A DNA stretch of 46,286 bases from Candidatus Micrarchaeota archaeon (GCA_041694885.1 JBGFRX010000013.1:1-46286), one strand, 5' to 3'; positions 4,080-39,900 are shown, counted from the stretch's first letter. Made by a program: numbers and translations. Notes: generated by a model from the letters alone, not told the origin.

Positions 4080-4195
4080 GCATTTCGCGTTCCCGGTTCC
4101 GTTTCCTGCCCTTTGGACAAACGCGGTTGAAAAGCCAGCAGCTTTCCGCAGGAGGACTTTCGAAGCGCCGGAAACAGGAAACAGTCCGCAAATGC
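4080..4195. repeat. Heptamer-flanked multi-hairpin intergenic element
   Basis: Terminal GCATTT/AAATGC, GTTCC..GTTTCC vs GGAAACAGGAAAC arms, inner AAAGC/GCTTT hairpin. Confidence 0.55.
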
Positions 4196-4201
4196 AGCTG
4201 C

Positions 4202-5137
4202 TCATTTTATGGGTCCGAACACCTGGGCTTCCGGGAACACTATCACTCCCTTGTTGGTTATCGTGAACGGGCATATCTTCTCCAGATGGAAAGTGTCGCG
4301 CATCTTTATCACTTCGAGCGCCCGATTCCTCGAGAGCTCCTTGCGCAGGTAGTATGTGAGTATCACTCCGTCCGAGAGGAATATCGAGCGGTCCTGAGTG
4401 CGCTCCCACTCGGTCTCTCCAACTTCTGCTATGACGAGTGTGGTTATGCCCCAGCGCCTCAGTATGGTGAACAAGTCCAGTATTGCCTCGCTTTCCCTGT
4501 ATGCGTTCTCGAAAAGCAGAGTGTAGGAAGTTAGCGAATCAATCACCACGCGCTTCGCGTTTATCGCGTCTATCGTATCTTTTATCGAGCCGCCGCCTTC
4601 ACTCAGTATGCTGTCCACTTCGTGCGGCTCGTATTTTATGAACGCGAACTTGTTCTGCTCCTCCAATTTCTTCAAATCCCAGCCGAAAAGTTCCGCATGT
4701 CTGTAAATCGCCTCCTTGCTTTCGTTGAATGAGATGTATATTCCGTTCTCGCCGTATTTCGATATGCCGTTGTTTAGATACTGGAGCCCGAATATCGTCT
4801 TTCCGGTTCCTGCGCCTCCGGAGAGCATGACCGTGCTTCCGCGCACGAACCCACCCTGCACTATTTCGTCGAAGCCGTCTATTCCGGTCGGAACGCGCTC
4901 CACTTTTATCGCAGTTGCAAGCTGAACGAACGACAATTCCTCTCTGAGCTTTTTCGAGATGTCCGCGAATTTTCTTCTCACAGCTGCGGGCTTCGCGTCG
5001 TCTTTTGCAGGTGCAGTTGTCGCTGCTTTGCTCTGCGGAGAAGCCGCTGCCTTTGCCGCCTGCTGGACACCCTTCACAGGAACAGCTGAAAATTTCGCTG
5101 CAGCTGCTGCGCTCCTCGTTGCTCTCGGTTTTGGCAT
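4202..5137 (-). CDS. KaiC/RAD55-family ATPase (single domain) with Ala/Lys-rich N-terminal tail
   Basis: PTGIDGFD, Walker A GGAGTGKT, Walker B VVIDS, LEVIKMR; likely start at ATG 5137. Confidence 0.9.
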   Translation of the reverse strand: MPKPRATRSAAAAAKFSAVPVKGVQQAAKAAASPQSKAATTAPAKDDAKPAAVRRKFADISKKLREELSFVQLATAIKVERVPTGIDGFDEIVQGGFVRGSTVMLSGGAGTGKTIFGLQYLNNGISKYGENGIYISFNESKEAIYRHAELFGWDLKKLEEQNKFAFIKYEPHEVDSILSEGGGSIKDTIDAINAKRVVIDSLTSYTLLFENAYRESEAILDLFTILRRWGITTLVIAEVGETEWERTQDRSIFLSDGVILTYYLRKELSRNRALEVIKMRDTFHLEKICPFTITNKGVIVFPEAQVFGPIK

Positions 5138-5256
5138 GTGGATAAATTCGTTAGAAGATTTATAAGGTTTTGCGCCCAAGTTTCTCTCAGACCCAGAAGT
5201 TTCTGTAAAATGAATGCAAAGCGCGCAGTAGAGAAAGGTGCGAAGGTGCATAAAAA

Positions 5257-5658
5257 ATGGAAATGGTGGTATTCGTCCTCAATTTTGCGTCCGGAATCTC
5301 CATGCTGCTCGTAATCTATGCTGCGTACATGATGGTGAGCAACTCTAAGGGTGATTTCGCGAAGGCGTTCAAGATCATACTTGTGGGCCACACCCCGAGC
5401 GTGATGATACATCTGCTTGGCTCGCTTTCCTATTTCGGAATCGAGATAATTCCGTACGGAAAAGGCACGGCATACATCGCGCTCAACCTCTCTAGCCAGA
5501 TTATCAGCGCGCTCTCGGTGTTCATAGCGATATATGTGATAAAACGCGCGCTCTACGACAAAATAGAGAAATTCCTGACCCAGTTCAGAAAGAGCGGCGA
5601 AAGCCCTAAAGAGAGGACGGGAAACAAGAAAACAAGGAAGGGGAAGCGCAATGGTTAG
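5257..5658 (+). CDS. Small membrane protein (about 3 TM)
   Basis: Hydrophobic helices; paralog of the next gene. Confidence 0.7.
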   Translation: MEMVVFVLNFASGISMLLVIYAAYMMVSNSKGDFAKAFKIILVGHTPSVMIHLLGSLSYFGIEIIPYGKGTAYIALNLSSQIISALSVFIAIYVIKRALYDKIEKFLTQFRKSGESPKERTGNKKTRKGKRNG

Positions 5659-5968
5659 CGGCAATGCAATGCTCTACCTCTCAAGTGCGCTCGCGATAGT
5701 CATGGTGATCACATTCTCCTTTTACATGGTCAGGAACACGAAGGGAAAGATGAGCGAGGGCTTCAAGATAATGCTGCTCGGCCACATACCGATGCTGCTC
5801 CTCCGCGTCGCAGAATTCGCGCTCATCTGGTATGGGGATTATTCGGTAAGCGACCTCAAGCTTTCTTTCCTGGAGCAAACCACGCAGATTATTGCCGCGC
5901 TTTCCGTTTTCATCGCGATTTATATAATACGGAATATGGCTTTTGTAAAGCAGACGAGGCATGCCTGA
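5651..5968 (+). CDS. Small membrane protein, paralog of 5257..5658
   Basis: FKIMLLGHIP vs FKIILVGHTP; QIIAALSVFIAIY vs QIISALSVFIAIY. Confidence 0.7.
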   Translation: MVSGNAMLYLSSALAIVMVITFSFYMVRNTKGKMSEGFKIMLLGHIPMLLLRVAEFALIWYGDYSVSDLKLSFLEQTTQIIAALSVFIAIYIIRNMAFVKQTRHA

Positions 5969-6482
5969 GATGAAGGACTACGCAGAGCTGATGAAGAGAG
6001 TGGAAAACGGGGCCACGGTTAGCATACGCCATGACCAGAAGACGGAGAGCGCCCTCTTGGATGGGTTGATAAGCCGCAAAAAAACGCTCGGTGTTTACCT
6101 GACGACGAAGCAGCCGCACGGCAAGATAATCGAGACCCTGGAGAAGGAAGGGATAGATCACACCTCGCTGTTCTTTTTGGACACAGTAGGAAAGGAAGGC
6201 GCAAAGGAGGACAACGTGTTCATACTGCGCGACCCCTCGGATTTGACGGAGCTCTCGGTTGTGATAACCGAGGTCATGGAGAACGAGGGTATAACTTTTC
6301 TGATAATAGATACTGTGGGCGGGCTCGAGACCTATGCGGAGAGTACGAGCGCGAAAAAGTTCCTGCACGCGCTCGTTTCCTATGTAAAGAAGCTCGGCAA
6401 ATCGCTCGTGATGGTTTACGACGAGCAGGGGAGCAAGGAATTGATGGATTTTGCAGCACAGATCTCGGATTATAGAAAGTAG
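5961..6482 (+). CDS. Degenerate RecA/KaiC-fold protein lacking Walker A
   Basis: VYLT..P, FFLD, PSDLTEL, FLIID; no GKT. Confidence 0.65.
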   Translation: MPEMKDYAELMKRVENGATVSIRHDQKTESALLDGLISRKKTLGVYLTTKQPHGKIIETLEKEGIDHTSLFFLDTVGKEGAKEDNVFILRDPSDLTELSVVITEVMENEGITFLIIDTVGGLETYAESTSAKKFLHALVSYVKKLGKSLVMVYDEQGSKELMDFAAQISDYRK

Positions 6483-6485
6483 GGC

Positions 6486-6545
6486 AAAACACGGAACTCA
6501 ATCGGAAAGAGCACAGCTCTTTATCGATTTGCGGCCTAAAGTCGC
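6486..6545. repeat. Heptamers plus AAAGAGC/GCTCTTT hairpin between convergent genes
   Basis: AAAACAC GGAACTC then GAAAGAGC-ACA-GCTCTTT and GCGGC-CTAAA-GTCGC. Confidence 0.5.
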
Positions 6546-6561
6546 ATGAAATGCCGGACAC

Positions 6562-7128
6562 TCATGCGCTCAGTTTTTCCATCTGCGCAGTGGCGAGCGA
6601 AGATAGTGAAGTGGCGAATGTTTCAGGAAGCTCCTTGGAGGAGAAAAGCACCAAGTTTACATAATGCTGCTTGCACATCGCCGAAAGCGCGTACAGGAAT
6701 CTGGTCGTTGTGCGTTCGTCGTTGTAAATCAGTACCGAGGAAAGAGAATCGAGGAAAAGAAACCTGAAGTCGTGCATCTTCAGCATGCGGGAGAGCACTA
6801 CCATCAGCCCCGTCAGGTCTCCTGGGAACGATACGAAAAACGCGTTTTCCAGTTCCCCTGTCCTTTCGCCCGTGTGCGTAGAAATGACGTCTAAGAAAAG
6901 GAGGCGGTTCTTCTGATCTATGTCCTTGAACAGATCTGCGAGCGAATTTGCCGGTTTGTTGAACGTAACATAAACAGCGTCGCCCTTCTTCCTGACCAAA
7001 AACGTTTCCATTACCTTGAGAAGATGCTTGTTGTAGTTCAAAGTGTCCATGGACAGCATAAATGTTGAAGGGGAATGCGTCCGCACCAGCTTTTCGTCAA
7101 GCATATTTTCCGGTTCCATGCCTGCCAT
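6562..7128 (-). CDS. Degenerate RecA/KaiC-fold protein, paralog of 5961..6482
   Basis: VYVTFNKP, LFLD, PGDLTGL, FLFLDSL; likely start 7128 or 7119. Confidence 0.65.
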   Translation of the reverse strand: MAGMEPENMLDEKLVRTHSPSTFMLSMDTLNYNKHLLKVMETFLVRKKGDAVYVTFNKPANSLADLFKDIDQKNRLLFLDVISTHTGERTGELENAFFVSFPGDLTGLMVVLSRMLKMHDFRFLFLDSLSSVLIYNDERTTTRFLYALSAMCKQHYVNLVLFSSKELPETFATSLSSLATAQMEKLSA

Positions 7129-8212: not shown

Positions 8213-8247
8213 GCGTTGATATCTAAGATGAAATAAATAAATGTTAG

Positions 8248-8430
8248 TGGGAGAGCCCGGAATTTCACTGTTTCCAATTTCGCGTCTTTCCGATCGGAAC
8301 ACGATCGAAAAGAGCTTCGCTCTTTTCCTAGCTTGCAGCCGAATTGTCGACTGCGTGAAACCGGAAACTGTTTTGAACCGGGATAACCAGCTCCCAAAGC
8401 TGGCAGCATACCAGGTTGGCTCACTCTCCC
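8248..8430 (-). tRNA. tRNA-Pro(TGG) with a 110-nt intron at 59/60 (8262..8371)
   Basis: Acceptor GGGAGAG/CTCTCCC; anticodon arm CCAGC-TTTGGGA-GCTGG; BHB TTCA AA^A ... TGAA AT^T restores T loop TTCAAAT. Confidence 0.9.
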
Positions 8431-8557
8431 TTCAATGAAACTCGATCGTGACACCGTGTGGCGAATCCCCAACTAAAGTCCGTTTGGACGACGAATCGTC
8501 GAAAACAGGAAACCCGAAACCGCTTATTTGCAGCAGCGATTGTTTTAAAAGAAAAAT

Positions 8558-8817
8558 TGCGGCCGCCGGGGTTTTCAGTCAGTCCCGACGTTGCCCATGC
8601 CACCTTTTGAGGAGCTTTGGGCGTTCTCGGACGCTATCAGACCTTCCCATTCCAACCCAATCTGCTTAAATGAACAGATGAGATCCGATACCGTGGGCCC
8701 AAGGGGACACTTTTCCCTTGGATTGACATTTGAACCCGGGTCGCGGAATTGGCAATCCCGTATCCTACCATTGTCCGTCGCTCTAGCGTTATTAGAGAAA
8801 CCCTAGACTACGACCGC
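8558..8817 (-). tRNA. tRNA-Gly(GCC) with two introns: 32 nt at 15/16 (8771..8802) and 157 nt at 59/60 (8572..8728)
   Basis: Acceptor GCGGTCG/CGGCCGC; CGGGA-TTGCCAA-TTCCG; central helices GTCT/GGAC and TTCA/TGAA with 3-nt bulges. Confidence 0.88.
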
Positions 8818-8966
8818 AAATAGAATATTAGTTGCATTGTGTTGTCCCGAATTAACTCGCTCCTGCAAATTTGTTTTCATCGTCGCAACTCTTAATTGTT
8901 TCGTTTCTTCCTGTAAAAGGCCCCGGTCGCGTCAAAACTGGAAACCCGGAACTGGCAACCGCCTAT

Positions 8967-8999
8967 TGACGGGAAGTAGGGGAATTATAAACTCTTACT
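8967..8999 (+). promoter_or_regulatory. 33-bp BRE/TATA-like element, copy 1
   Basis: TGACGGGAAGTAGGGGAATTATAAACTCTTACT; 30/33 identical to 44927..44959. Confidence 0.55.
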
Positions 9000-9100
9000 T
9001 ACGTTGCGCGAACCCCTGGTCGTTGGTGAAGGCAGAGGTTATAAATTTAAGCTGGAATAAAAGTACGAAATATTCTGATTAGAATGGATAAGGTGAAAAA

Positions 9101-9715
9101 ATGACAAACGAAGTTGAAAAATTGCGGGAAGGGAACAGGAGATTTGCGGCAAATCAGCCGTCAGCAAAGGACCTTGCGAAAGCGCGGCTCGAAACGCAAA
9201 ACAGGCAGCAACCCTATGCGATAGTGCTTACGTGCAGCGACTCGCGCGTAGCGCCTGAGCACATATTCGACGCTGGGATAGGGGAAATATTCGTCGTGCG
9301 CACCGCGGGCAACGTCGTGGATAAGATCGCGCTGGGAAGCATAGAATACGCTGCAGAGCATCTGTACGTATCTTTGCTTGTGGTTATGGGGCATGAGAAG
9401 TGCGGCGCGGTGAAAGCAGCGTGGGAGGCAACAGAGTACGGAACAAGAAACACTGAACCGGGAACTGCCGGGGCACATGGCGGGCAGTCGAAAAACATAG
9501 CTGCGATAGTGAAGGCGATAATCAAATCGGTGAATAAGGCGAAAAGGAAAAACAAGACAGTGGAGGACGCGGCGAACGAGAATGTGAAAAGGCAGATCAG
9601 GGAAATCATGAGAAAAAGCCCGGCCTGCAAAAAGCTCGCTGAGGAGGGGAAGCTGAAAATCGTGGGGGCGAAGTACAAGCTCTCGGGCTGGGAAGTCGAA
9701 ATTATAACGAAATGA
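9101..9715 (+). CDS. Beta-class carbonic anhydrase
   Basis: CSDSR, R.AGN, GHEKCGAV zinc motifs. Confidence 0.95.
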   Translation: MTNEVEKLREGNRRFAANQPSAKDLAKARLETQNRQQPYAIVLTCSDSRVAPEHIFDAGIGEIFVVRTAGNVVDKIALGSIEYAAEHLYVSLLVVMGHEKCGAVKAAWEATEYGTRNTEPGTAGAHGGQSKNIAAIVKAIIKSVNKAKRKNKTVEDAANENVKRQIREIMRKSPACKKLAEEGKLKIVGAKYKLSGWEVEIITK

Positions 9716-9720
9716 ACCGC

Positions 9721-9743
9721 TCTTCTTTTTGTTTTTGTTTTTT
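9721..9743 (+). terminator. Oligo-T terminator
   Basis: T-rich run directly after the carbonic anhydrase stop. Confidence 0.5.
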
Positions 9744-9814
9744 ATGTGCGAAAAAGCAACCATTTTAAATCTCAGAAAACAGAATGATTCCACGAATTCC
9801 TAAGGTGGTTTCAT

Positions 9815-10225
9815 ATGATAAAGGAAGTGGTGGTCGTCTCAAAGGACAAGCTCGGACTTCTCGCAGATCTTTCCTACGTGCTCGCGAAGGAAAAAATAAA
9901 CATAGAGAACGTGGATGCGAACATTCTCGGGGAAAGGGCGGTCGTGCGGTTAGGCGTGCTGAGCGCCAAATACGAAAAGGCGAAAAGCGCACTCGAGCAG
10001 AACAGATACGAAGTGCTCCATGCTGATTCGCTTGTGGTGCGGCTCGAAGACAAGCCAGGTGCGCTTGCCGAAATGACGAGGAAATTGGCAGACGCGAAAA
10101 TAAACATACTGAACGCGCATGTGCTCTGGAAGCAGGGTGCATACGTCTTCGATTCCATAACTGTTGACAAACCGAAGGAAGCGAAAAAAGTGCTCGGAAG
10201 CGCGGTCGCGAACGGGAGCGGATAG
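9815..10225 (+). CDS. Tandem ACT-domain protein
   Basis: DKLGLLA..L...INI and EDKPGALA..L...INI. Confidence 0.85.
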   Translation: MIKEVVVVSKDKLGLLADLSYVLAKEKINIENVDANILGERAVVRLGVLSAKYEKAKSALEQNRYEVLHADSLVVRLEDKPGALAEMTRKLADAKINILNAHVLWKQGAYVFDSITVDKPKEAKKVLGSAVANGSG

Positions 10226-10306
10226 GGCCGGATTTTTCATGCATATAATCGGCATAGAGGATAATAGGCGATGGCGCAGGTTGAAACGATCTGGTGAATA
10301 CTGGTT

Positions 10307-15544: not shown

Positions 15545-15578
15545 TTATAAGAATTATAGAAGAAACTGGAAACAGTTT

Positions 15579-15672
15579 GGGGCTGTGGCGTAACCAGGCA
15601 GCGCGGCTGGCTCCAGGTCCCGAAAGGGAGTTAAGCAACCAGCATGTTAGAGTTCAAATCTCTACAGCCCCA
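15579..15672 (+). tRNA. tRNA-Trp(CCA) with a ~21-nt intron near 37/38 (15617..15637)
   Basis: Acceptor GGGGCTG/CAGCCCC; GCTGG/CCAGC anticodon stem; TTCAAAT loop; oligo-T downstream. Confidence 0.85.
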
Positions 15673-15738
15673 CTAAAATTTTTTCTTTTTAAAAAAAGAC
15701 CAGCTCGCATTTATAAATAAAAGATACGGAGAGAAATC

Positions 15739-24965: not shown

Positions 24966-25937
24966 ATGATTACTTTGGGAATAGAATCCACTGCGCATAC
25001 GCTCGGAATAGGGATAGTCGAAAATGGGGAAGTGCTCTCCAATATTTACGATATGTACAGGTCGCCCAGTGGAGAAGGCATGCTTCCCCGGAACGCAGCA
25101 GACCACCATTCGGAATATTTTGCGCGCATCCTGAAGATGAATCTGGAAAGTGCAGGGCTAAAACTGCGCGATATTGATTTGATAGCGTTCGCTCAGGGAC
25201 CGGGGATAGGCGCCCCTTTGCGCATGGGAGTAGTGATGGCGAAATACCTCGCGAAAAAATACGATAAACCCATAATAGGGGTGAACCACTGCTACGCGCA
25301 CGCGAAAATAAGCGAGCACCTTACAGGCCTGAAAAATCCCCTTTATCTGTATTTGAGCGGAGGAAACAGCCAAATACTCGCGGAGAAGTGCTCCAAGTTC
25401 CGCGTTTTGGGAGAGACGCTGGACATAGGCATGGGAAATTTATTCGACGCTTTCGCAAGGAATATCAGGCTGGAACACGCGCACGGCTCCGCGCTCACGG
25501 AGCTTGCGAAAGGAGGGAAATACGTCGAGCTCCCTTATTCAGTAAAGGGGATGAACCTCGTTTTTTCCGGATTGCTTACCCATGCGAGCCGGCTGGCGAA
25601 AATGCATGGCAAGAAAGATGTCGCCTACTCATTGATGGAAACCGCTTTTGCGATGAGCTGCGAGGTCACGGAGCGGGCATTATTTTTGACCAAAAAGAAA
25701 AAATTAGTCGCATGCGGAGGGGTTGTGCAGAATAGGAGACTGCAGGAAATGCTTCGCATAATGTGCGAAGAGGATGGAGTTGAGTTCGGGGTTGCTCCTG
25801 ATGAATTCAACAGGGATAATGGGGCAATGATTGCTTATGCAGGACAGTTGCTTTATACGAAACAGGGAACTCAAAACCGGAAAGCTGTAGAGGATTGGGA
25901 AGCGATACAGGATTACAGAATAGATCAGATTAGATGA
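24966..25937 (+). CDS. kae1: KEOPS t6A synthase Kae1
   Basis: GIESTAHT, GPG, VNHC.AH, LSGGN, GETLD, DNGAMIA. Confidence 0.96.
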   Translation: MITLGIESTAHTLGIGIVENGEVLSNIYDMYRSPSGEGMLPRNAADHHSEYFARILKMNLESAGLKLRDIDLIAFAQGPGIGAPLRMGVVMAKYLAKKYDKPIIGVNHCYAHAKISEHLTGLKNPLYLYLSGGNSQILAEKCSKFRVLGETLDIGMGNLFDAFARNIRLEHAHGSALTELAKGGKYVELPYSVKGMNLVFSGLLTHASRLAKMHGKKDVAYSLMETAFAMSCEVTERALFLTKKKKLVACGGVVQNRRLQEMLRIMCEEDGVEFGVAPDEFNRDNGAMIAYAGQLLYTKQGTQNRKAVEDWEAIQDYRIDQIR

Positions 25938-26331: not shown

Positions 26332-26727
26332 TTAAAAAACGAGTACTCCGTCCTCTGCATCAACCTGTACTTCCTGGTCATCCTTAAGCACTTTGAAAAG
26401 GTCCTTTTCCATCTTGTCGAGCATCGGTATTCCGGAAATTATGGCACCTACTGCGATTATGGGCTCTGCTTCCGAGTTTATTATTGCCGCAGGTGCCTTT
26501 CCATTCTTCTTCAATTGGAGCATCACGTAGGAGCCTACGGTTGAACCCTTTCCGTGCGGAAACACAAGCACACTTCCTGAGACGTTTTTGCCCTCTATTG
26601 CATGGCCCTTCTCTATCACTGTTCCTGTTTTCGGATCAACTCCCCCTAAGAATGAGATCGCATCCCTGCTTATCAGGACTTTCCCTGTTGCCTTGCCCCG
26701 TGCAATGACTCTTCCCTTTATCTGCAT
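26332..26727 (-). CDS. Phosphomevalonate dehydratase small subunit (AcnX swivel domain)
   Basis: SFLGGVD..TG, GKGSTVGS; cluster context. Confidence 0.9.
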   Translation of the reverse strand: MQIKGRVIARGKATGKVLISRDAISFLGGVDPKTGTVIEKGHAIEGKNVSGSVLVFPHGKGSTVGSYVMLQLKKNGKAPAAIINSEAEPIIAVGAIISGIPMLDKMEKDLFKVLKDDQEVQVDAEDGVLVF

Positions 26728-27890
26728 ATTATGTCACCTACGTTTCCGAAGACCACCTTCTGTTTGCACAATGACGAGAGGTATTTGGCCGCCTTTCCTG
26801 AATTGCAGCCAGTAACCCTGTATCCCATCTCTTCGAGAGGGCACACCACCATGCAGGTGTCTGCAACAACCCTGCCGCCCGCTTTCTCTATTGCTGCAGT
26901 GTATCCAAGTCGGTCTGATATTTTTTTGGTTGCGCGTGCAGTGCACACCCACAAATCGCAATCAAGCGTCTTGCCCTTCACCAGCTCCGCGACTTCCTTT
27001 ATTTCCTGCACCGAAGCATGCGGGCAGCCGATGGTAATCAGGTCCGGTTTAGCGCCGGAATTGAGCCCTTCCTTAGATTCCTTAAGTTCTTTTTCAGTAA
27101 ACGCGATTTTTTCCGGCTTGTCCGAAATCCTGAATTCAGGAGTTGTCCCTTGCACATTGAAAAGCGCCACAGAGCCGGATGCAGCCATCGCTGCGCCCAG
27201 CCCCTTGAGCTTGTCCTCGCTTGCATTTCTTATTCCAGTAAATGCTGGATTCCGGTTTTTGATTACCGGCCCGAGATAATTGCCCATTGCGCCAAAATCA
27301 GCGCTTGTCCTTAGATCTGCTTCCACCTCAACGACAAAATTACAAACCCTGTTCCTGTCCAGATGGAAACCGTATTCAGGAGTTACTCCGCATATAGCAG
27401 CAGCGAGCGCGCTCGGTCCGCCTTCCCGATTGGTGCGTGCGCCGAGAACCGAATTCGCGAATGCAACAGCAGAGCTCTCTGACCATGCGATGTGCTCTCC
27501 AACCTTTGGCCTGAGCCCGATTAAGTAAGGAGTGCATGTACAAGTCATCGTTATTCCAATAGAGGCGTACGCATCAAGGACTTCTATCTGCTTTTTTGCG
27601 AATTCCTCCGGAATCTTCATCTCCTTCCATTGCTCCCTGTCCATGCCTGCAGGATTGAGGAAAGACGGTATCTTCACTTTCGCACCACTTTTAGACATGC
27701 GCTGGAGGTATTCCAGCCCAGCATCCCCGATTGTTTTATAGGAAACACCTGCTATCTGGGCTGAGCTTATCGGTATCATCCTTTCCGCGCCATAGATTTT
27801 CCCGAGCGCGATGAGGATTTCCATGGACTGGCGCGCCGCCTCGCCCATTTCGCCATTGTATATCTTCTGCTCGGTTTTTGAGAGCATCAT
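26718..27890 (-). CDS. Phosphomevalonate dehydratase large subunit (aconitase X)
   Basis: GVSY, TCTPY, WSESSAV..ANS, GCPH, DTC. Confidence 0.9.
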   Translation of the reverse strand: MMLSKTEQKIYNGEMGEAARQSMEILIALGKIYGAERMIPISSAQIAGVSYKTIGDAGLEYLQRMSKSGAKVKIPSFLNPAGMDREQWKEMKIPEEFAKKQIEVLDAYASIGITMTCTCTPYLIGLRPKVGEHIAWSESSAVAFANSVLGARTNREGGPSALAAAICGVTPEYGFHLDRNRVCNFVVEVEADLRTSADFGAMGNYLGPVIKNRNPAFTGIRNASEDKLKGLGAAMAASGSVALFNVQGTTPEFRISDKPEKIAFTEKELKESKEGLNSGAKPDLITIGCPHASVQEIKEVAELVKGKTLDCDLWVCTARATKKISDRLGYTAAIEKAGGRVVADTCMVVCPLEEMGYRVTGCNSGKAAKYLSSLCKQKVVFGNVGDIICR

Positions 27891-29197
27891 TCCCGCACCT
27901 GCAAATAGTCCTCCGGGTTCACCTTCATCCATTCGGCTTTCCCGAAATTCTTGCCGTGCGCAACGAGCGGCTTCGTTGCATCCATACCCATTTTCGAGGT
28001 GGTGTACGTGTGCGGATCAGCAGAAGGGTCGAGCGAGGAGCCTTTTTCGTTTTCCTTTATCATCAGCCCTTTGCCCGCCTGAAGCCGCGTTGCAACGGCC
28101 CATTCAACAGAATTCGTATCGTAAATATCTATGTCATCGTCAACAACTATCACGTGCTTGAGGGACTTGTGGCCTTTGAAAGCCGCTTCTATCGCATTTC
28201 TTCCATCATCCTTGTTCTTCTTTTTTATCGCTACAACTGCATGAAGCCAGGAGCAGCCGCCGGGCGTTATGTTCACGCCTCTGCACTCGCACACCTTGCC
28301 CACTTCATTGAATATCGTCGGCTCGCGTGGTAGGCCCATCAGGATTTTGTGCTCCAATGCACCTGGAAGCAACGCATGGTATATGGGATTTTTCCTGTGG
28401 TGCACTTTCGTGATTTTCATAACACGCTGCTTTCTCACTATGTCATAGGTTTCGGTGAGGTCTATGAACGGTCCTTCGTCCGCCATTTCGTTCATGATCC
28501 TGCCTTCGAATGCGAATTCAGCGTCACTAGGCACTTCTATTCCATTGCCCAGCCGCACCGTTTTGAAGGGCATGAGCGAATTCGCGATTTCCAGTTCGTC
28601 TTTTCCCAGTTCGATGGAAGTCGCGCCTGCAAGTAACACGTTTATCGGCGCACCTATTACGAACGCAACGTCTAATTCGCCCCCTGCCTTTTTTATATAC
28701 TCGTTTAAATGCCTTGGGAGTATCCTCATTACGACCCTGTCTTTTCCAATGACCATCATCCTGTGGAAGGAGCAGTTCCTTCCCAATTCACTGTCCTGAG
28801 CTATCACCACTCCCGCGGACAGATATGGTCCGCCGTCTTTTTCTGCATGGAACAGAATTGGGTATTCGGAAAGGTCAACTTCCTTTTCGGTAATTTCAAG
28901 CACAGGGCCTGTTTTCACGAGTTCGGGCTTGCTCGGACTGTTTATCGCCCGCGCGATTCTCAGGATAAGCTCACCTTTCCTTATTCCAAGACAATCGCAA
29001 ATAAGTTCGCGGGTGGAAAAAAGGTTTCCCGCAACTCGCGCATCCGGATTCTCCTTTATTTTTTCGCTATAAACTGCTTTTCCGTCCAGCGCCTTGAGCA
29101 CTCCTGCGAGCTCGAGATGCTTTGATATGGGTTTTTTCAAGTCGATAATTTTGCCTTCTTTCCTCAATTGCCCGATAAAATCCCTGAAACTTTTCAT
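27887..29197 (-). CDS. UbiD-family decarboxylase (putative anhydromevalonate phosphate decarboxylase)
   Basis: DGGPY, EGPF, VVDDDID; adjacent to AcnX and UbiX. Confidence 0.9.
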   Translation of the reverse strand: MKSFRDFIGQLRKEGKIIDLKKPISKHLELAGVLKALDGKAVYSEKIKENPDARVAGNLFSTRELICDCLGIRKGELILRIARAINSPSKPELVKTGPVLEITEKEVDLSEYPILFHAEKDGGPYLSAGVVIAQDSELGRNCSFHRMMVIGKDRVVMRILPRHLNEYIKKAGGELDVAFVIGAPINVLLAGATSIELGKDELEIANSLMPFKTVRLGNGIEVPSDAEFAFEGRIMNEMADEGPFIDLTETYDIVRKQRVMKITKVHHRKNPIYHALLPGALEHKILMGLPREPTIFNEVGKVCECRGVNITPGGCSWLHAVVAIKKKNKDDGRNAIEAAFKGHKSLKHVIVVDDDIDIYDTNSVEWAVATRLQAGKGLMIKENEKGSSLDPSADPHTYTTSKMGMDATKPLVAHGKNFGKAEWMKVNPEDYLQVRE

Positions 29198-29730
29198 TTG
29201 CCCCACCTTTTCATGAGTTTGTGCTTTATTCCAAGCTGGTCGAGCACCCTTGCAGTCATGAAGTCAACTAGATCGTCAATTTTTTTCGGGTTCCCGTAGA
29301 AGCCGGGCGATGCGGGCATAATCACTCCTCCTGCAAGCGCAACTGTTTCCATATTTTTTATCGTTATGAGGGAGTAAGGAGTGTCCCTTACCACCAGAAT
29401 CAGATTTTTCCTTTCCTTCAGCGCCACTTCAGCAGCCCGGGTAATGAGCGATTTGCCCACTCCGTTTGCTATTTCGCCCAGTGTCTTGAGCGAGCACGGG
29501 ACAACCACAACTGCGTCAGGTGGATTGGAGCCAGACGTATAAGGACAATAAAAATCGAATTCTTCGTAATCCGCCCCGGGCAGCGCTTCCTTCTCCGCTT
29601 CCGCGACTTTTTTCGCACCCGAACTGACTACGACCTTGCAATCCACTCCGTTCGTTGCCTTGAGCGCCGAGACAAGGCGCCTGGCATATCGTATGCCAGA
29701 AGCGCCTGTTATCGCAACTAGAACTCTCAT
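29194..29730 (-). CDS. ubiX: Flavin prenyltransferase UbiX
   Basis: ITGASG, SGS, PCS.KTL, R.TP, PGFY. Confidence 0.93.
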   Translation of the reverse strand: MRVLVAITGASGIRYARRLVSALKATNGVDCKVVVSSGAKKVAEAEKEALPGADYEEFDFYCPYTSGSNPPDAVVVVPCSLKTLGEIANGVGKSLITRAAEVALKERKNLILVVRDTPYSLITIKNMETVALAGGVIMPASPGFYGNPKKIDDLVDFMTARVLDQLGIKHKLMKRWGK

Positions 29731-29780
29731 AAATTCAGTTCCGCGAACCTTTATTAAATCCTTTTCGGCAAGATAAACCC

Positions 29781-30539
29781 ATGAAAATACTGAAGATAGG
29801 GGGCAGCTTCATAACTAAAAAATCCGGCTACCTGGAACTGGAAACAGGAAACCTTGCCCTGTTCACCAAAACAGTATCCGGAATATGGAAAAAAGGGATT
29901 CGTGACTTCATACTCGTTCACGGCGCCGGCTCGTTCGGCCATGCGCTCGTCCTGAAATACGGCATAAACGATGGTGTGAAGACAAGGGAGCAGAAAATCG
30001 GCTTTGCAGATACCCACGCCTCGTGCAGCGAACTGTCCATGCGTCTGGTGCATGCGCTCATAAAGGAAGGCGTGCCTGCAATATCCCTGCCGCCCGCAGC
30101 AGTGCTCGAGCAGAAAAAAAAGCGCATTTCGAAATTCAACGATGTGCTTGTGAGGGCCTACTCGAGGGCTGGTTTCCTGCCTGTTCTTTACGGAGACATG
30201 GTCCCGGACAGCGCACTCGGCGGCTCTGTCTGCTCCGGGGATCAGATAGTTGCCTATTTGGGAAAAGATGTGGAATTCATAGTGCTTGCAACAAGCGTGG
30301 ACGGCGTGCTTGATGATAATGGCAAGGTTATTGCGAAAATAACCTCCGATAATTTCGAGGAAGTCAAAAAGCACCTGAAAAAAAACGATAAGGACGTTAC
30401 AGGTGCAATGGAAGGGAAACTTAAGGAACTTCTTGCCTTGGACACCGTTTCCTATATTGTGAATGCGGCGCATCCGGAACGGCTGGAGGCGCTCATGCTC
30501 GGAAGGAAGGCGATTTGCACGGAAGTGCGGAAAAACTAA
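29781..30539 (+). CDS. Isopentenyl phosphate kinase
   Basis: LKIGGS.IT.K, HGAGSFGH, SGD, DVTG.M.GK. Confidence 0.9.
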   Translation: MKILKIGGSFITKKSGYLELETGNLALFTKTVSGIWKKGIRDFILVHGAGSFGHALVLKYGINDGVKTREQKIGFADTHASCSELSMRLVHALIKEGVPAISLPPAAVLEQKKKRISKFNDVLVRAYSRAGFLPVLYGDMVPDSALGGSVCSGDQIVAYLGKDVEFIVLATSVDGVLDDNGKVIAKITSDNFEEVKKHLKKNDKDVTGAMEGKLKELLALDTVSYIVNAAHPERLEALMLGRKAICTEVRKN

Positions 30540-30564
30540 GATTTATCTGAACCAAACGGATAGT

Positions 30565-31227
30565 ATGGTAAGCATCAAATGGCTCACACCATCTCTTTTG
30601 GAAAAAATTATGCGCGAGGCGGGAAAAAGAGGCGCGCCCGTATTCAAAATCAGCTCATTCACCAAAAGGGACAAATTCAGGTCCTTGGTTTTCACCGTCC
30701 TTTCCGCAAGGACAAAGGATAAAACCACCATCAAGGCGTGCAGAAAATTGTTTGCGGAATTCAGGAATGCGGAACAGTTTGCTGTTGCGGATGGAAAGCA
30801 AATCGAAAAACTGATTTACGGAGTTGGTTTTTACCGCACAAAGGCGAAACATATAGTTGAATTGGCGAAAAAACTGAACGAGGAGTTTGGGGGAGAAGTT
30901 CCGGCTGATTTCAACTCTCTTATTTCCCTGCCCGGAGTCGGAAGGAAAACCGCAAACGTGGTTTTGGCGCTCGTGTTCGGAAAAAATGCGATAGGGGTGG
31001 ACGTGCACGTGCACCGTATTTCCAACCGCCTCGGAATAGTAAGGACGAAAAGACCGGAGGAAACGGAAAAGGAATTGGTGAGGATTATTCAAAAAAACCT
31101 GCACAGGACTCTAAACATTGCGCTTGTTTCCCACGGCCAGACAACCTGCTTGCCCAAGGTTCCTTTCTGCTCGCGCTGCGTTATCAGGGAATACTGCAAA
31201 AGAATTGGAGTGAAGAAGTCAGGATGA
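30565..31227 (+). CDS. nth: Endonuclease III
   Basis: LPGVGRKTA HhH, VDVHVHR, Cx6Cx2Cx5C. Confidence 0.95.
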   Translation: MVSIKWLTPSLLEKIMREAGKRGAPVFKISSFTKRDKFRSLVFTVLSARTKDKTTIKACRKLFAEFRNAEQFAVADGKQIEKLIYGVGFYRTKAKHIVELAKKLNEEFGGEVPADFNSLISLPGVGRKTANVVLALVFGKNAIGVDVHVHRISNRLGIVRTKRPEETEKELVRIIQKNLHRTLNIALVSHGQTTCLPKVPFCSRCVIREYCKRIGVKKSG

Positions 31228-31333: not shown

Positions 31334-31456
31334 TGCAAGGAGCAGGATTTGAACCTGCGTAGCTGCTAGAGCACCAACCCCTGAAGCTGGCACGTTTGGC
31401 CTCCGTTTCAAAACCCGGAACTCGAAACGGATTTGACCGGGCTCCGCCATCCTTGC
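31334..31456 (-). tRNA. tRNA-Leu(CAG) with a 37-nt D-loop intron (31396..31432)
   Basis: Acceptor GCAAGGA/TCCTTGC; long variable arm; GGTC AA^A ... GGCC AA^A splice motif. Confidence 0.9.
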
Positions 31457-31490: not shown

Positions 31491-31543
31491 CTGTTTCCCG
31501 TCTCCAGTTCTGAATAGGACGCGAGACAGAAAACGGGAAACCG
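31491..31543. repeat. Heptamer inverted repeat in the tRNA-Gln/tRNA-Leu spacer
   Basis: GTTTCCCGT ... ACGGGAAAC arms with 7-nt periodicity. Confidence 0.6.
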
Positions 31544-31578: not shown

Positions 31579-31690
31579 TAGCCCCGACCGGATTCGAACC
31601 AGTGTCACAAGGTATCTCCGAAACCGGAAACCCGAGAGAGGAAACCGTTTTTCCAGAGCCTCGTATCCTTGACCGCTAGACTACGGGGCT
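31579..31690 (-). tRNA. tRNA-Gln(CTG) with a 39-nt canonical 37/38 intron (31614..31652)
   Basis: Acceptor AGCCCCG/CGGGGCT; CTCT GG^A ... GGAG AT^A. Confidence 0.92.
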
Positions 31691-33718: not shown

Positions 33719-33790
33719 GGGCTGGTAGATCAACGGTAGATCGCGTCGTTCGCAACGACGAGGCTGAGGGTTCGAATCCCTCCCCGTCCA
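33719..33790 (+). tRNA. tRNA-Ala(CGC), intronless
   Basis: Cloverleaf, G3:U70, CGTCG-TTCGCAA-CGACG; one U5:C68 mismatch. Confidence 0.9.
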
Positions 33791-33850
33791 TATTATTACC
33801 AGTTACTGTTTCCGGTCCATTTTGAAATCAGCATTCAGATTTTCCAGCAT

Positions 33851-34906: not shown

Positions 34907-34940
34907 CAAAATCACCACCCGTGCTTCGTTCGTTTTTGCC

Positions 34941-36140: not shown

Positions 36141-36178
36141 ATTTCCATCAGATATTCATTCGCTCTTTCCATTCCAGC

Positions 36179-37495
36179 TCATTCTCCCAATTTGAATTCC
36201 TCGTGTATGGCGCGTATGCATTCGTCAACGCTCTCCTGCCGTATTATAATCGTAATGTTCGAGTCGGTTGCCGCCTGGGATATCATCTCTATATTTACCT
36301 TGTTCTTTGCGACCGAGTCGAAAATGCGCGCAGATGTGCCCACGCTTCCCCTTATCCCTTCGCCTACGACACCAATTGCTGCGAACCCCGTCTTTATCCA
36401 GAATTCGCTCACGATTTTGGAGGGCATGTCGTCGAGTGTTTTCCTCACCTTTTCAGCATCACCCTCGTCCACTGTGAAGGAGATATTGACCTGGGAAGTG
36501 GCGATGGTGTCTATGGATACGCCGTTGTCAGCCACCACGTTGAATATTTTCGCAGCAACTCCAGGCATGTTGACCATCGCACTTCCCTTCACATTCACTA
36601 TCGCGATTTTCTTCTTCGCCGCTATGGAAGTTATTATCCTGTCCGAATTCTCCTTCCTTTTCTCCACTATGCGCGTTCCGTTCGCAGAAGGATCGAACAC
36701 GCTCTTTATCTGTGCGGAAATCCCAGAGCCCTCGAGCGGGTCCATGGTTCTCGGATGAAGTATCTTCGCGCCCATGTATCCGAGCTCCTTCGCCTCTTCA
36801 AACGTTATCTCGTCCAATTTCTTCGCGTCCTTCACCACGCGCGGGTCTGCTGTCATGAAGCCTTCTACGTCCTTCCAGATTTCCAGCACGTCCGCTCTGC
36901 TAGCCACAGCGACCACGGCAGCGGAGTAGTCCGAGCCGCCCCTGCCGAATGTGTTTACATTGCCTTCTGAATCCACGCCGTAAAATCCGCTTATCACGAG
37001 CGTCCTTTCCTTTATTTTCGGAATAACATTTTTTGCGAAATTCGTTTTCGTCTTCTCCATCACGCAGTTTGCTCTCTCGAACTTTCCATCAGCGACTATG
37101 CCGCACCGTTCCGCGTCCATCGTCTCAGCGCTTATTCCGTGTGAATTGAGGTATTCGGAAACAAGGATCGCGCTCAGCCGCTCCCCGAACGAGGCGATGC
37201 GCTCCTTCCTCTCCATCCCATTCGTTTTTTCGGAAAGCAATTCAGAAAGTTCGGAGAATTTCCTCCCGAACATCTCGTCCTCGCTATCGAAATACGCCTG
37301 GTGCATTTTCCTGAGTTGCCCGCTTATGTCCTCGCCTTTCGCATAAGCGTTGAGCAGCATGTCCGTTACTCCGTTGAGCGCAGACACCACCAAGATGTTC
37401 TCGCGCCCGAAATTCATCTTCACGATTTCAACGAGGATTTCGAGATCTTCGCGGTTCCGCAGAATCCCCCCGCCTATCTTAAGCACAGCGCGCAT
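36179..37495 (-). CDS. lysC: Aspartate kinase with two ACT domains
   Basis: KIGG, VVSA..GVTD, GERLS, GRGGSD, ADPR. Confidence 0.94.
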   Translation of the reverse strand: MRAVLKIGGGILRNREDLEILVEIVKMNFGRENILVVSALNGVTDMLLNAYAKGEDISGQLRKMHQAYFDSEDEMFGRKFSELSELLSEKTNGMERKERIASFGERLSAILVSEYLNSHGISAETMDAERCGIVADGKFERANCVMEKTKTNFAKNVIPKIKERTLVISGFYGVDSEGNVNTFGRGGSDYSAAVVAVASRADVLEIWKDVEGFMTADPRVVKDAKKLDEITFEEAKELGYMGAKILHPRTMDPLEGSGISAQIKSVFDPSANGTRIVEKRKENSDRIITSIAAKKKIAIVNVKGSAMVNMPGVAAKIFNVVADNGVSIDTIATSQVNISFTVDEGDAEKVRKTLDDMPSKIVSEFWIKTGFAAIGVVGEGIRGSVGTSARIFDSVAKNKVNIEMISQAATDSNITIIIRQESVDECIRAIHEEFKLGE

Positions 37496-37502
37496 TCTTC
37501 GT

Positions 37503-38495
37503 TCACCTTTCAGTCCTGTCCGAAATGGCAATCAGGTCCGCAAGCACGGCACTCGCGGTCTCCATTTCTCCGGCGCCTTTCCCCACGAGCGTGAGTGGCC
37601 CTGCCATTTTCGTTTCAAGGGTTATCGCATTGAGCGTTCCGTTTATGGATGCAAGAGGATCAGAAACCGGGACAAAGCACGGCGCAACTTCCATATTTCC
37701 GTCTGCGTCCGCAGAGCAGATCAATTTAATCCTGTAATTCTGCGATGCGGCCAATTCAAGTATCTCGGGCGTGATGCGCGAAATTCCCGTCCTCTTCACT
37801 TCAGAAAAGGACGCGCTCTTTCCGAATATCGCGTTCGCTACTATTGCGAGCTTCGCAGCAGCATCTATCCCCTCCACATCGTAGGAAGGGTCCTTTTCCG
37901 CAAACCCGAGCTGCTGCGCCTCCCTGAGCACGCTTTCGTAGGGCATCTTCTCCTCAAACATCCGCGAAAGGATATAGTTGGTGGTTCCATTGAGTATTCC
38001 CTTCACCTTGGAGACCCGGTCTGCCCTGAGATAATTGTTCGCAGTTGCGAAAATCGGTATCGCGCCTCCCACAGTCGCCTCGAACCTGAAAATGCACCCA
38101 TTCTTCTTTGCAAGCGAGTTGAGTTCGTGGAAATGGAGTGCAAGCGGGCCTTTATTGGAGGTTACGAGGTGCTTCTCCCTTGCGAGCGCTGTCTTCATGT
38201 ACGTATAAGCCGGCTCAGCGTCCTTGAGGTTGGTAGTAGTTAGTTCCACGAGCACGTCATATTCCGCATCCTGCACAATCTCAATTGCCTGCTTCTGCAC
38301 AAACCCTGCAAGCTCGGATATTTTCCTTCCCGCAGCGGTTTTTTTCAATTCTTCGGCAGCAATCCCATCTTTTGAATAGAGATATCCGGAAGAGGACGCT
38401 ATTCCGCACACGATGAATTCCTTCCTCTGGAAAAGCGCCTTGAGCACCCCCTTTCCCACTGTGCCAGTTCCGAGTACGAGAAGTTTCAGCGTCAT
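37503..38495 (-). CDS. hom: Homoserine dehydrogenase
   Basis: G.GTVG, VTSNK, EATVGGAIP, GILNGTTN, AEKDP..DVEG.DAA.K. Confidence 0.95.
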   Translation of the reverse strand: MTLKLLVLGTGTVGKGVLKALFQRKEFIVCGIASSSGYLYSKDGIAAEELKKTAAGRKISELAGFVQKQAIEIVQDAEYDVLVELTTTNLKDAEPAYTYMKTALAREKHLVTSNKGPLALHFHELNSLAKKNGCIFRFEATVGGAIPIFATANNYLRADRVSKVKGILNGTTNYILSRMFEEKMPYESVLREAQQLGFAEKDPSYDVEGIDAAAKLAIVANAIFGKSASFSEVKRTGISRITPEILELAASQNYRIKLICSADADGNMEVAPCFVPVSDPLASINGTLNAITLETKMAGPLTLVGKGAGEMETASAVLADLIAISDRTER

Positions 38496-38547
38496 TGTCG
38501 CATCACAATGCAGGTTTTTAGTTTCCAGTTTAGAGTTTCGCATCCTT

Positions 38548-39042
38548 CTATTCCACTGTCTTTATGAGCATGAGGTTGTTCTGGCTGCACACTTCCTCTA
38601 TTGTTCTGAGCGCCCTCGAAACAATTTCGTCGTCTTCAGTGTCGAATGTGATGAGCGCACTGCTCTCCCCGCTGTGCGATGGCATGTTCACCGAGAATTT
38701 GGACACGTTCGCTCCGAGCACATCGACTTTCCTGACCATCGTCTCCACGCTCCTGGTATGTATTATATGCCCGACAATGCCCACGGTTATGCGCCTGAGC
38801 TGCGCTAGTTTTCCGAGCGATATGACTTTCCAGCTGTCTTTCCTGAGCAGCGCTGACAACCGCTCGAGCGCCTCCTTTCCCACGATAGCGAACGTTACTA
38901 TCACTGGCATATGAGAGTTCGTCTTCTTTCCGTGCATGTGCGTGACACTCGTAATGTTCGCGTTCACCTCGCTCAGCACATCCAGGAGCTTCCTGAGCTG
39001 CCCTGGCTTGTCCTCCAATTCAACTTCAAGCGACGCTTTCAT
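38548..39042 (-). CDS. ACT-domain regulator associated with homoserine dehydrogenase
   Basis: EDKPGQL, ANI.SV.H, VGHI; directly upstream of hom. Confidence 0.85.
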   Translation of the reverse strand: MKASLEVELEDKPGQLRKLLDVLSEVNANITSVTHMHGKKTNSHMPVIVTFAIVGKEALERLSALLRKDSWKVISLGKLAQLRRITVGIVGHIIHTRSVETMVRKVDVLGANVSKFSVNMPSHSGESSALITFDTEDDEIVSRALRTIEEVCSQNNLMLIKTVE

Positions 39043-39094
39043 CTTCTTGGCACCTGATGGTTCCAGTTCAACAAATGATCAGCTAACTCTGTAG

Positions 39095-39856
39095 TTATAT
39101 CCCTAATACATCGTTCATGCTATAAACTTTTCCTCCTATATTCCTGGAGGCAATCCACTTTATCGCCTTCACGCACCCCCTCGCGAACGCGTCCCTGGAA
39201 TGCGCGGAATGCCTTAGTTCTATTTCCTCGCTGTTTCCTACGAACCAGATGGAATGCATCCCTACTATGTCCCCTGCCCTCACCGCATGCACCCCTATCT
39301 CATTCCTCTTTCTCGGCATCATCCCGTTCCTTCCGTAAACAAACTCATCGTTCTGCGCCCGCGCTTCCTGTATGACTTTCGCCACCTTTACAGCCGTTCC
39401 GCTCGGCGCATCCTTCTTCTGATTGTGGTGCCATTCTATAACTTCAACGTCGTAGTCCCTCAGTTTCGCGGCCATCTCGCCCGCAAATTTGAAGAATAGA
39501 TTGACACCTACGGAGAAGTTTGGGGCAAGAAGCGCAACCGCATCCTTTTCCTTTACCGCATCTTCAATTTTTTTCATCTGCTCCGGAGTGAACCCAGTCG
39601 TACCTATAACCAGCTTCTTTCCATCAGCAATTATTTTCGGAACGGATTCAGAAGCCGCATGCGCATTTGTGAAATCCACGACCACTTCCGCATCCCTTAT
39701 CGCTTCGGAAATTTTGTCGGGCGTGTAAATCGGATAAGCTGCTTTCCCCCCATTCAACTCCACTCCTGCAACTATCCGTATTTCCGGATCTTCGGCAGCA
39801 ACCTGCGCAGCAGCAGCGCCCATTTTTCCCAGTCCAATGAATGCAACCTTTATCAT
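39095..39856 (-). CDS. dapB: 4-hydroxy-tetrahydrodipicolinate reductase
   Basis: GKMG, DFT, GTTG, E.HH..KKDAPSGTA. Confidence 0.96.
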   Translation of the reverse strand: MIKVAFIGLGKMGAAAAQVAAEDPEIRIVAGVELNGGKAAYPIYTPDKISEAIRDAEVVVDFTNAHAASESVPKIIADGKKLVIGTTGFTPEQMKKIEDAVKEKDAVALLAPNFSVGVNLFFKFAGEMAAKLRDYDVEVIEWHHNQKKDAPSGTAVKVAKVIQEARAQNDEFVYGRNGMMPRKRNEIGVHAVRAGDIVGMHSIWFVGNSEEIELRHSAHSRDAFARGCVKAIKWIASRNIGGKVYSMNDVLGI

Positions 39857-39900
39857 TTAATCACCAACAATTTCGGGTTTTTTATCTCCGGTTCCGTAAA

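Follow-up and report, generated by a model that had tools for sequence, protein, structure and literature searches.

The stretch of DNA analysed here (the window) is a contig of 46,286 nucleotides (nt) from Candidatus Micrarchaeota archaeon (GCA_041694885.1 JBGFRX010000013.1:1-46286; contig C23 of the source genome, G000). It carries an ordinary set of genes (KaiC-like, carbonic anhydrase, aRF1, LysRS, Sm-like, Kae1, Hjc, a mevalonate-pathway block, aspartate-family genes and SecDF), among which short arrays of a degenerate 7-nt unit are dispersed in spacers, open reading frames (ORFs) and tRNA introns. The source genome, a Micrarchaeota (DPANN) assembly of 922,512 bases in 41 contigs, is 93.6% complete and has a GC content of 0.49; its gene set comes from our own ORF caller trained on codon usage, a crude one, which gave 877 genes covering 88.5% of the genome. 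As relatives, we compared 24 further members of the family and 16 genomes from the same order but outside the family, the nearest ones being Candidatus Micrarchaeota, some of them Bilamarchaeaceae. Two congeners, G003 and G004, were analysed as whole genomes, and their GC contents, computed over about 380 kb each, are 0.36 and 0.54, respectively. In a metagenome scan for close strains, the best protein identity was 75%; among public runs, two low-coverage contig runs contain parts of the window, and no RNA run containing it was listed.

The heptamer unit can be written as S-R-R-A-A-C-N, and the typical element consists of four head-to-tail units with a C before the first one. In the window, the pattern made of three consecutive units of RRAACNSRRAACNSRRAAC, with at most one mismatch, matched 14 times, compared to a mean of 0.09 and a maximum of 1 in 100 dinucleotide shuffles. 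The genome was scored for four RRAAC cores at 7-nt steps, that is, for 20 core positions per 28-mer: 188 28-mers with at least 18 of the 20 core positions and 34 with all 20 were found, compared to 0 to 3 and 0 to 1, respectively, in ten fifth-order Markov simulations, which corresponds to an enrichment over chance of about 100-fold. Furthermore, same-strand GAAAC-to-GAAAC spacings of 7, 14 and 21 nt occur 76, 49 and 33 times genome-wide, compared to 4 to 10 times for spacings of 5, 6, 8, 9 and 10 nt. An initial annotation, made from the sequence of the window alone, had proposed a dispersed degenerate heptamer family and had named a period-7 signal and enrichment over background as the checks on it; both signals are present, and the lack of enrichment that would have spoken against the family was not observed.

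Merging in-phase hits gave 183 arrays, with 3, 4, 5, 6 and 7 units in 56, 102, 16, 4 and 5 of them, and the copy number of the element in the genome amounts to some 180 to 340. Across the 102 four-unit arrays, the AAC columns are occupied as expected in 88 to 101 cases, the two columns before AAC are purines, and the N columns are near uniform. The base ahead of the later units is C or G, with a preference for C at units 2 and 3 and for G at unit 4, and a C is found at position -1 in 90 of the 102 arrays. Apart from this C the flanks hold no information and are not conserved, in a profile that left out the longer arrays by construction. The initial annotation had given the unit as about GAAACCG; the 7-nt RRAAC family stands, with the unit corrected to S-RRAAC-N and four units (102 of 183 arrays) as the preferred size. 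Among the 13 sites that it had listed, seven are arrays of at least three units, four have two units and one has three good units out of four, the last site of the list is doubtful, and three arrays had been missed (Table 1). Four of the sites listed fall in the non-coding stretch 8303-9100 (798 nt). Only one of the 13 sites (4170-4184) was flagged by Tandem Repeats Finder, which misses most of them because the units are degenerate.

Table 1. Heptamer arrays and array-bearing introns in the window
Feature	Position	Strand	Context and remarks
Four-unit array	895-920	-	5' end of ORF 512-943 (no family match), before the start of homology to relatives and hence probably in the 5' leader; absent from the initial annotation
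Three-unit array	4082-4100	-	Spacer between ORF 940-4047 and KaiC-like ORF 4202-5251; absent from the initial annotation
Two perfect units, GAAACAG GAAACAG	4171-4184	+	Same spacer
Weak two-unit site	6486-6499	+	Directly after the stop of ORF 5961-6482
Clean two-unit site	8357-8370	+	Non-coding stretch 8303-9100
Three-unit array	8502-8520	+	Non-coding stretch 8303-9100
Four-unit array	8934-8959	+	Non-coding stretch 8303-9100
Four-unit array, sense, read GTRNTEPGT	9440-9465	+	Inside beta-carbonic anhydrase ORF 9101-9715; orthologue lengths vary here
Clean two-unit site	15562-15575	+	4 nt 5' of tRNA-Gly(CCC) 15579-15673, 3' of an A/T-rich stretch
Four-unit array, sense	25859-25884	+	Near the 3' end of Kae1/TsaD ORF 24966-25937
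Three-unit array, sense, read LELETGN	29834-29852	+	Amino-acid-kinase-family ORF 29781-30539; common to G004; absent from the initial annotation
37-nt D-loop intron of tRNA-Leu(CAG)	31395-31431	-	Gene ~31335-31456; hairpin formed by array 31403-31430; intron ends ambiguous by a flanking CAAA repeat
Inverted pair	31493-31541		Between two tRNA genes; GTTYY arm 31493-31511 (-), then RRAAC arm 31516-31541 (+)
39-nt anticodon-loop intron of tRNA-Gln(CTG)	31614-31652	-	Gene 31579-31690; array 31620-31647 (plus) reads GUUUC in the tRNA sense; three of four units good, no three-unit pattern match because the third unit is GAGAG
Four-unit array, sense	38514-38539	-	5' end of homoserine dehydrogenase ORF 37503-38543, before homology begins, in the spacer after an ACT-domain ORF
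Doubtful degenerate site, two non-adjacent good units	39868-39895	-	dapA-dapB spacer

The arrays lie on both strands, and head-to-head arms that pair with each other, as described in the initial annotation, are indeed present: for the inverted pair located between the two tRNA genes, the folding energy is -21.8 kcal/mol (z -2.4), and the stretch 31395-31440 folds at -18.4 kcal/mol, a value reached in 0 of 200 shuffles.

Belonging to the same array does not make units more alike: of 4 variable positions, adjacent units have 1.68 in common, compared to 1.72 for units taken from different arrays. This, together with the preferred four-unit size, ruled out a microsatellite produced by slippage. 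Pairwise distances between arrays approximate those expected after column shuffling, except that distances 1 and 2 are slightly over-represented (12 versus about 3), and no identical array pairs were found. Among the 127 arrays of at least four units, 59 two-unit blocks are shared (39 +/- 7 expected), one three-unit block (0.4 expected) and no four-unit block. Copy-and-paste from a master sequence, in the manner of miniature inverted-repeat transposable elements, was ruled out by these null-like distances, by the free flanks and by the lack of shared three- to four-unit blocks beyond chance. Thus, with no signal of copying within or between arrays, the arrays behave as independent instances of a profile.

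Outside one family, the element was seen in only a single further lineage of the order. In particular, 18 of the 24 other family genomes contain the exact four-unit pattern, compared to 1 of the 16 genomes of other families. When the four-unit pattern was counted with up to two mismatches (reversed-pattern control in brackets), we obtained 161 matches (13) in the source genome, 212 (8) in G004, 190 (0) in G005, 136 (35) in G020, 89 (16) in G016 and, outside the family, 124 (25) in G034, the other 15 genomes outside the family having 0 to 2. The same-genus genomes G001, G002, G003, G006 and G007 have 7, 23, 15, 6 and 12 matches, and density within the genus ranges from 6 to 212 per genome, about 30-fold. 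At the score of at least 18 of 20 core positions, G003 has 44 and G004 247 28-mers, next to the 188 of the source genome.

For the origin of the arrays, we considered 54 ORF arrays of at least four units, of which 29 could be aligned at the site in G004 and 26 in G003. The orthologous site holds an array (at least 17 of 20 core positions) in 8 of 29 cases in G004 and 2 of 26 in G003, a partial array in 7 and 5 cases and no array in 14 and 19 cases, respectively. At the Kae1/TsaD site of the window, likewise, a shorter partial array is found in G004, G005 and G007 and none in G002 and G003. Length is unchanged at 6 of the 14 array-less sites in G004 and at 10 of the 19 in G003, and the clearest origin in place is that at C15:43905, where AELETLNAKLE of the source genome corresponds position for position to AELKTLGVELK (G004) and NDLNSLNVKMN (G003). 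Where ORF arrays come with insertions, these span 2 to 20 residues and have no fixed length. Comparison of spacers based on synteny was usable for about 17 arrays: about half of the arrays of the source genome have some array in the G004 spacer, and those in operon spacers are mostly specific to the source genome. An AAC identity of 46 of 48 positions in four shared array pairs was not counted, as the pairs had been chosen as arrays and the value is subject to this ascertainment effect. According to these alignments, some arrays arise in place through substitutions, and small insertions accompany others.

Arrays are therefore not fixed in relatives, and the ancient fixation that the initial annotation had named as an argument against its proposal does not apply. 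Its idea of a repeat that propagates itself by copying or transposition is not supported, given the lack of likeness between the units of an array, the lack of shared blocks beyond chance and of conserved flanks, and the origins in place; the absence of copying signatures and of a fixed insert size speaks against transposition.

It could be supposed that no dedicated reader of the arrays exists and that they arise incidentally, from a mutation or repair bias that depends on context or from selection for A-rich unstructured spacers together with modular 5-bp hairpin helices. The sense form has no self-complementarity and inverted arrays pair in register into regular stems, in agreement with this proposal, and so is the distribution of HhH-GPD/Ogg-type glycosylases: the source genome has three such genes (window 30463-31227, L453:1460-2077 and L461:831-1466), with matches in G004 and none in the AT-rich, array-poor G003, and it is possible that glycosylase loss, AT drift and a low array count are linked. 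However, such generic properties need no invariant AAC, no 7-nt register, no set of four units and no leading C, and GAAAC is only mildly enriched outside arrays (2714 occurrences, compared to about 1800 by a hand estimate from base composition), which makes this explanation improbable.

Across the genome, 98 of the 183 arrays are intergenic, 80 lie in ORFs and 5 at ORF edges, and array density is about 0.9 per kb in non-coding and 0.1 per kb in coding DNA. Considering their context, 71 arrays are internal to ORFs (57 sense and 14 antisense), 33 are inside tRNA genes or within 150 nt of them, 37 precede a start codon by at most 60 nt or belong to an N-terminal extension ahead of homology, 14 lie at most 60 nt after a stop codon (9 antisense and 5 sense), one (antisense) is at the N-terminal end of an ORF without homologue, and 27 are other intergenic arrays. 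Sense copies in ORFs are read as hydrophilic peptides resembling ETGNPKP loops (e.g., ETGNPELET and KTQNPKPET), antisense copies as peptides of the VSGFGFRVP type, and both fall in variable, surface-loop-like parts of the proteins. The arrays thus sit wherever extra sequence is tolerated, in spacers, variable protein parts, tRNA flanks and the introns of tRNA and 16S rRNA genes, in accordance with the accumulation at tolerant sites suggested initially.

The Alba gene (L469:17-553; G000:C25:3716-4252) features an apparent 88-residue N-terminal extension, not present in relatives, which holds a four-unit and a seven-unit array, so that translation probably starts directly behind the second of these. 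We rejected Alba as an autoregulated reader of the arrays, because the arrays upstream of its gene occur in the source genome only (0 of 4 relatives).

About 34 tRNA genes were recognized in the source genome with ARAGORN, run with introns, and Rfam, and about 19 of them are interrupted. About 10 tRNA introns carry arrays, the GUUYY form coming first, often with an RRAAC array next. Pairs in this order fold in register into regular stems and serve as intron stems, a role that had been foreseen for tRNA introns and that extends to one 16S rRNA intron. The 16S gene (C20:10646-12716) is 2071 nt long for a model of 1478 positions and contains insertions of 108, 220 and 113 nt, absent from G003 and G004 and presumably introns, the third of which contains a GUUYY/RRAAC hairpin; no 23S match was found in the assembly. 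The array-bearing introns are probably of the protein-spliced archaeal (bulge-helix-bulge) type, the exons being contiguous in the orthologues of relatives. In particular, the anticodon-loop site of tRNA-Gln(CTG) is uninterrupted in G002, G005 and G007, the genes of G005 (73 nt) and G002 being called by ARAGORN. That of G007 (L199, G007:C3) has another intron instead, which adds about 90 nt to the T-loop region, and intron positions in this gene differ between congeners. The syntenic tRNA-Leu(CAG) gene of G005 is likewise uninterrupted (88 nt), and introns with GTTTC arrays occur at the same site in other Leu/Ser-type genes of G002 and G003. We also noticed, on contigs C35 (about 27,800-28,000) and C27 (about 1,300) of the source genome, a common leader of the form GAAAC..tgtcagcgcatca ahead of several tRNA 5' ends, which in C35 is duplicated together with a partial tRNA copy. 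In the window, the minus strand of 8690-8818 looks by eye like a tRNA with more than one intron, and it was called by neither ARAGORN nor Rfam.

The initial annotation had compared the repeats to cyanobacterial heptamers, and the analogy is apt in form: in the available part of a report on the Nostoc tRNA-Leu(UAA) intron, degenerate heptamers of Class I (TDNGATT) and Class II (NNTGAGT) build the P6b stem, and as in our case degenerate 7-nt units lie in a tRNA intron, where complementary runs build a stem-loop that changes by whole units (PMC4476775). Different from Nostoc, the host is archaeal, the introns are probably protein-spliced and not group I, four units are the preferred size, and there are copies in ORFs and rRNA introns. 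Moreover, the units within one of our arrays are not near-identical. Short tandemly repeated repetitive (STRR) sequences are defined by a single fixed family of heptamers, repeated in tandem in the intergenic DNA of cyanobacteria. We did not assign the arrays to this class, considering their Micrarchaeota host, the degenerate units and the 80 of 183 arrays in ORFs.

Repetitive extragenic palindromic (REP) elements and REPINs have RAYT transposases, and Rickettsia palindromic elements sit in ORFs and are translated in frame. The arrays resemble these elements in being short and dispersed, in forming hairpin doublets and in having copies translated in frame. Different from these elements, single arrays are not palindromic, share nothing beyond the motif and occur with no RAYT-type Y1 transposase in G000, G004 or G005. 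Repeats made by a retroelement were likewise discarded, the reverse transcriptase domain PF00078 being found in none of the eight genus genomes (G000 to G007). In IMG/VR viral contigs (L319-L398), we observed tandem GAAACNN in 4 to 13 copies in more than 131 stretches of very different GC, far above the chance expectation for a 20-base pattern. Many of the 80 viral loci inspected have arrays of one identical heptamer (GAAACAA, GAAACCC), and a minority are degenerate (e.g., L326, L354 and L394). None of these loci is similar to three Micrarchaeota genomes (tblastx, E 1e-6), and we take them to be a different phenomenon.

The closest resemblance in genome-wide behaviour is to the uptake signal sequences (USS) of Pasteurellaceae and the DNA uptake sequences (DUS) of Neisseriaceae, which occur in hundreds of copies with a conserved core and free positions, in both orientations and at lineage-specific densities, and which have ORF copies where these are tolerated, inverted pairs acting as hairpins after genes, and an origin by substitution and not by transposition. 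In bacterial proteomes, uptake sequences likewise fall in variable protein parts. The arrays are similar to USS and DUS in copy number, in the combination of core and free positions, in their presence on both strands, in their tolerant ORF sites, in the hairpin pairs, in the lineage-specific density and in the origin by substitution. As is characteristic of uptake sequences, they are over-represented in both orientations with no replication-like polarity seen along contigs, and they originate by substitution and are sited in tolerant parts of ORFs, though about half of the cases involve insertions. They differ in having a four-fold 7-bp array instead of a single core of 9 to 12 bp, in the transcript-related strand bias outside ORFs and in the strong enrichment in introns of stable RNAs, and no competence machinery was identified. 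Full-text literature searches for such repeats in Micrarchaeota or archaea gave no description of them, and we know of no over-represented genome-wide signature motif described for archaea.

Since a motif of 20 positions arises in place at many unrelated and poorly conserved sites, a directional force can be inferred. We therefore lean, with a confidence somewhat short of even, towards a recognition motif peculiar to the lineage and maintained by a bias that acts on sequence, for instance in uptake, recombination or repair. Its reader would be a lineage-specific factor, probably oligomeric, that recognizes four RRAAC cores spaced 7 nt apart and would favour the fixation of certain DNA variants, either because these are preferentially taken up or recombined or because repair is biased, a logic that would be analogous to that of bacterial DNA uptake sequences; local selection would then sort the surviving sites and their strand. 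The high-identity anchors offered by tRNA and rRNA genes may make introns and flanks the easiest entry for arrays by recombination, which could account for the intron excess.

The observations that weigh against such a DNA-level bias concern the strand of the arrays outside ORFs, the introns, the insertions and the reader itself, in addition to an array spacing along contigs that is random-like (coefficient of variation 1.1). In tRNA introns, some 11 to 12 arrays occur in about 1.1 kb, compared to 98 in about 106 kb of other non-coding DNA, an approximately tenfold higher density. Array orientation follows transcript context. Upstream of start codons, 30 arrays are sense, 7 of them in N-terminal extensions, and 7 are antisense (p 2e-4), although a pure DNA drive predicts no skew outside ORFs. 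In spacers of at most 90 nt between co-directional genes, the array is sense in 11 of 11 cases, and near tRNA genes the ratio of sense to antisense is 10:3 in 5' flanks, 3:6 in 3' flanks and 3:8 inside the gene, solitary tRNA-intron arrays reading GUUYY.

This dependence on the transcript is what would be expected if the arrays acted in RNA, where a ring-shaped or multi-domain protein could read AAC triplets that recur every 7 nt in leaders, in the spacers between cistrons and in introns, according to the logic of TRAP and HutP, and could tune translation, RNA folding or intron structure, with GUUYY arrays sequestering sites in hairpins. The stems formed by paired arrays in tRNA and 16S introns are consistent with it, and there is a published analogue: the available part of a report on TAACTGA direct repeats, found in marine Beggiatoaceae and in some Cyanobacteria and Bacteroidetes, describes 169 sets of 2 to 6 repeats, mostly just upstream of starts, and for those of Beggiatoaceae a reading by an RNA-binding protein was proposed (PMC4679880). 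The arrays share with those sets, as far as that text goes, the 2 to 6 direct heptamers, a similar number of sets per genome, the location in intergenic DNA and some ORFs, the AAC in the unit and the lack of an evident mobilising mechanism. They differ in that those repeats lie mostly a few nt from starts, whereas only 30 of the 183 Micrarchaeota arrays are sense and within 60 nt upstream and 71 are internal to ORFs; the Micrarchaeota units are also degenerate, and an association with introns or tRNA and hairpin pairs are not described in that part of the report. The arrays were not classed as leader repeats of the TAACTGA type, as there is no majority near start codons.

An RNA-level role is less easily reconciled with the fact that arrays inside ORFs make up the most numerous class (71 of 183, compared to 37 upstream of starts). 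The genes behind 5'-proximal arrays are mixed housekeeping genes with no common theme (FtsZ, ribosomal L3/L2, POR, transketolase halves, purL/purQ, argG/argH, FEN1, HisG, Alba and others), the sites are poorly conserved even between array-rich species, with the 30-fold difference in density within the genus, and the cold-shock domain, proposed as a reader, was not found in G000 or G004. On this evidence an RNA-level function is rather unlikely, yet it deserves consideration.

The introns and insertions, in turn, bear on a selfish mini-insertion, the view taken in the initial annotation, in which an enzyme would add about 28 nt from a degenerate template at breaks or nicks and harmless copies would persist. 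The array introns of the source genome are absent from the orthologous tRNA-Gln, tRNA-Leu and 16S genes of relatives. At the array-less sites, the protein of the source genome is at least four residues longer in 8 of 14 cases compared to G004 and in 9 of 19 compared to G003, which fits insertion, and C5:8979 contains a 57-nt in-frame insertion of a hairpin pair. Neighbouring arrays show one preferred inverted order, GTTYY-then-RRAAC in 13 pairs and the opposite in 4 (10 versus 0 at gaps of at most 10 nt), as would result from additions at both 3' ends of a break, and the bursts of arrays in some species are also in line with such an enzyme. Nevertheless, some arrays originated in place, at unchanged length and with residue-by-residue homology, the insert lengths vary from 2 to 20 residues, and there are neither conserved flanks nor shared variable positions; we consider the mini-insertion unlikely.

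The search for enzymes and readers bears on each of these proposals. The Y1 transposase domain PF01797 was not found in the array-rich G000, G004 and G005 and is present in the array-poor G003 and G015; as the reverse transcriptase domain is also missing from the former three, the absence of a visible mobilising enzyme, noted initially for the window, holds. None of the 41 genomes has a match to the ComEC domain PF03772, which says little about uptake because the archaeal control genomes were also without one. None of the four domains (Y1 transposase, reverse transcriptase, ComEC and cold-shock) correlates with array density, and no reader protein was identified among the candidates examined. 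A gene family co-occurring with the repeat had also been suggested: 104 genes of the source genome match the array-rich G004 and not the array-poor G003, a set too large to resolve and a contrast that is confounded by clade, and none of the enzyme or reader domains tested tracks density. For a 73-residue candidate, which shows a faint hint of a zinc ribbon, strong matches are limited to G000, G004 and G005, and it was not found in the array-rich G016, G020 and G034. Since the strand rules outside ORFs and the tenfold intron excess are not explained by a sequence-directed bias on DNA alone, we keep the RNA-binding and insertion proposals beside it, and the three need not exclude one another.

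As for the surroundings, the block 26332-30539 of the window encodes the AcnX large and small subunits, a UbiD-like protein, a UbiX-like flavoprotein and a kinase, and resembles the archaeal modified mevalonate route; it is present in G004 at 72 to 80% identity, and no match was found in G003. Elsewhere in the source genome, the short contigs C18, C26 and C40 have a GC content of 0.33 to 0.35, compared to about 0.49 elsewhere, and could be of foreign origin or the result of mis-binning.

In cases such as uptake sequences, Chi and HIP1, an over-represented signature motif has led to a component of the machinery that handles DNA. Here, a tiny genome of the symbiont type devotes several kilobases to one strict motif, and its tolerance of nine-residue loops in housekeeping proteins and of interrupted tRNA and 16S genes implies a strong directional force and a reader. 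It is possible to speculate, as a long shot, that the arrays represent the first archaeal genome-wide "self" signal, read by the import, recombination or repair machinery of DPANN and spread by biased fixation, with the seeding of introns in tRNA and rRNA genes, through recombination at conserved exons, as a side effect. The arrays can be used as bait for the reader, as a lineage marker in metagenomes and as a test case for intron gain in archaeal stable-RNA genes.

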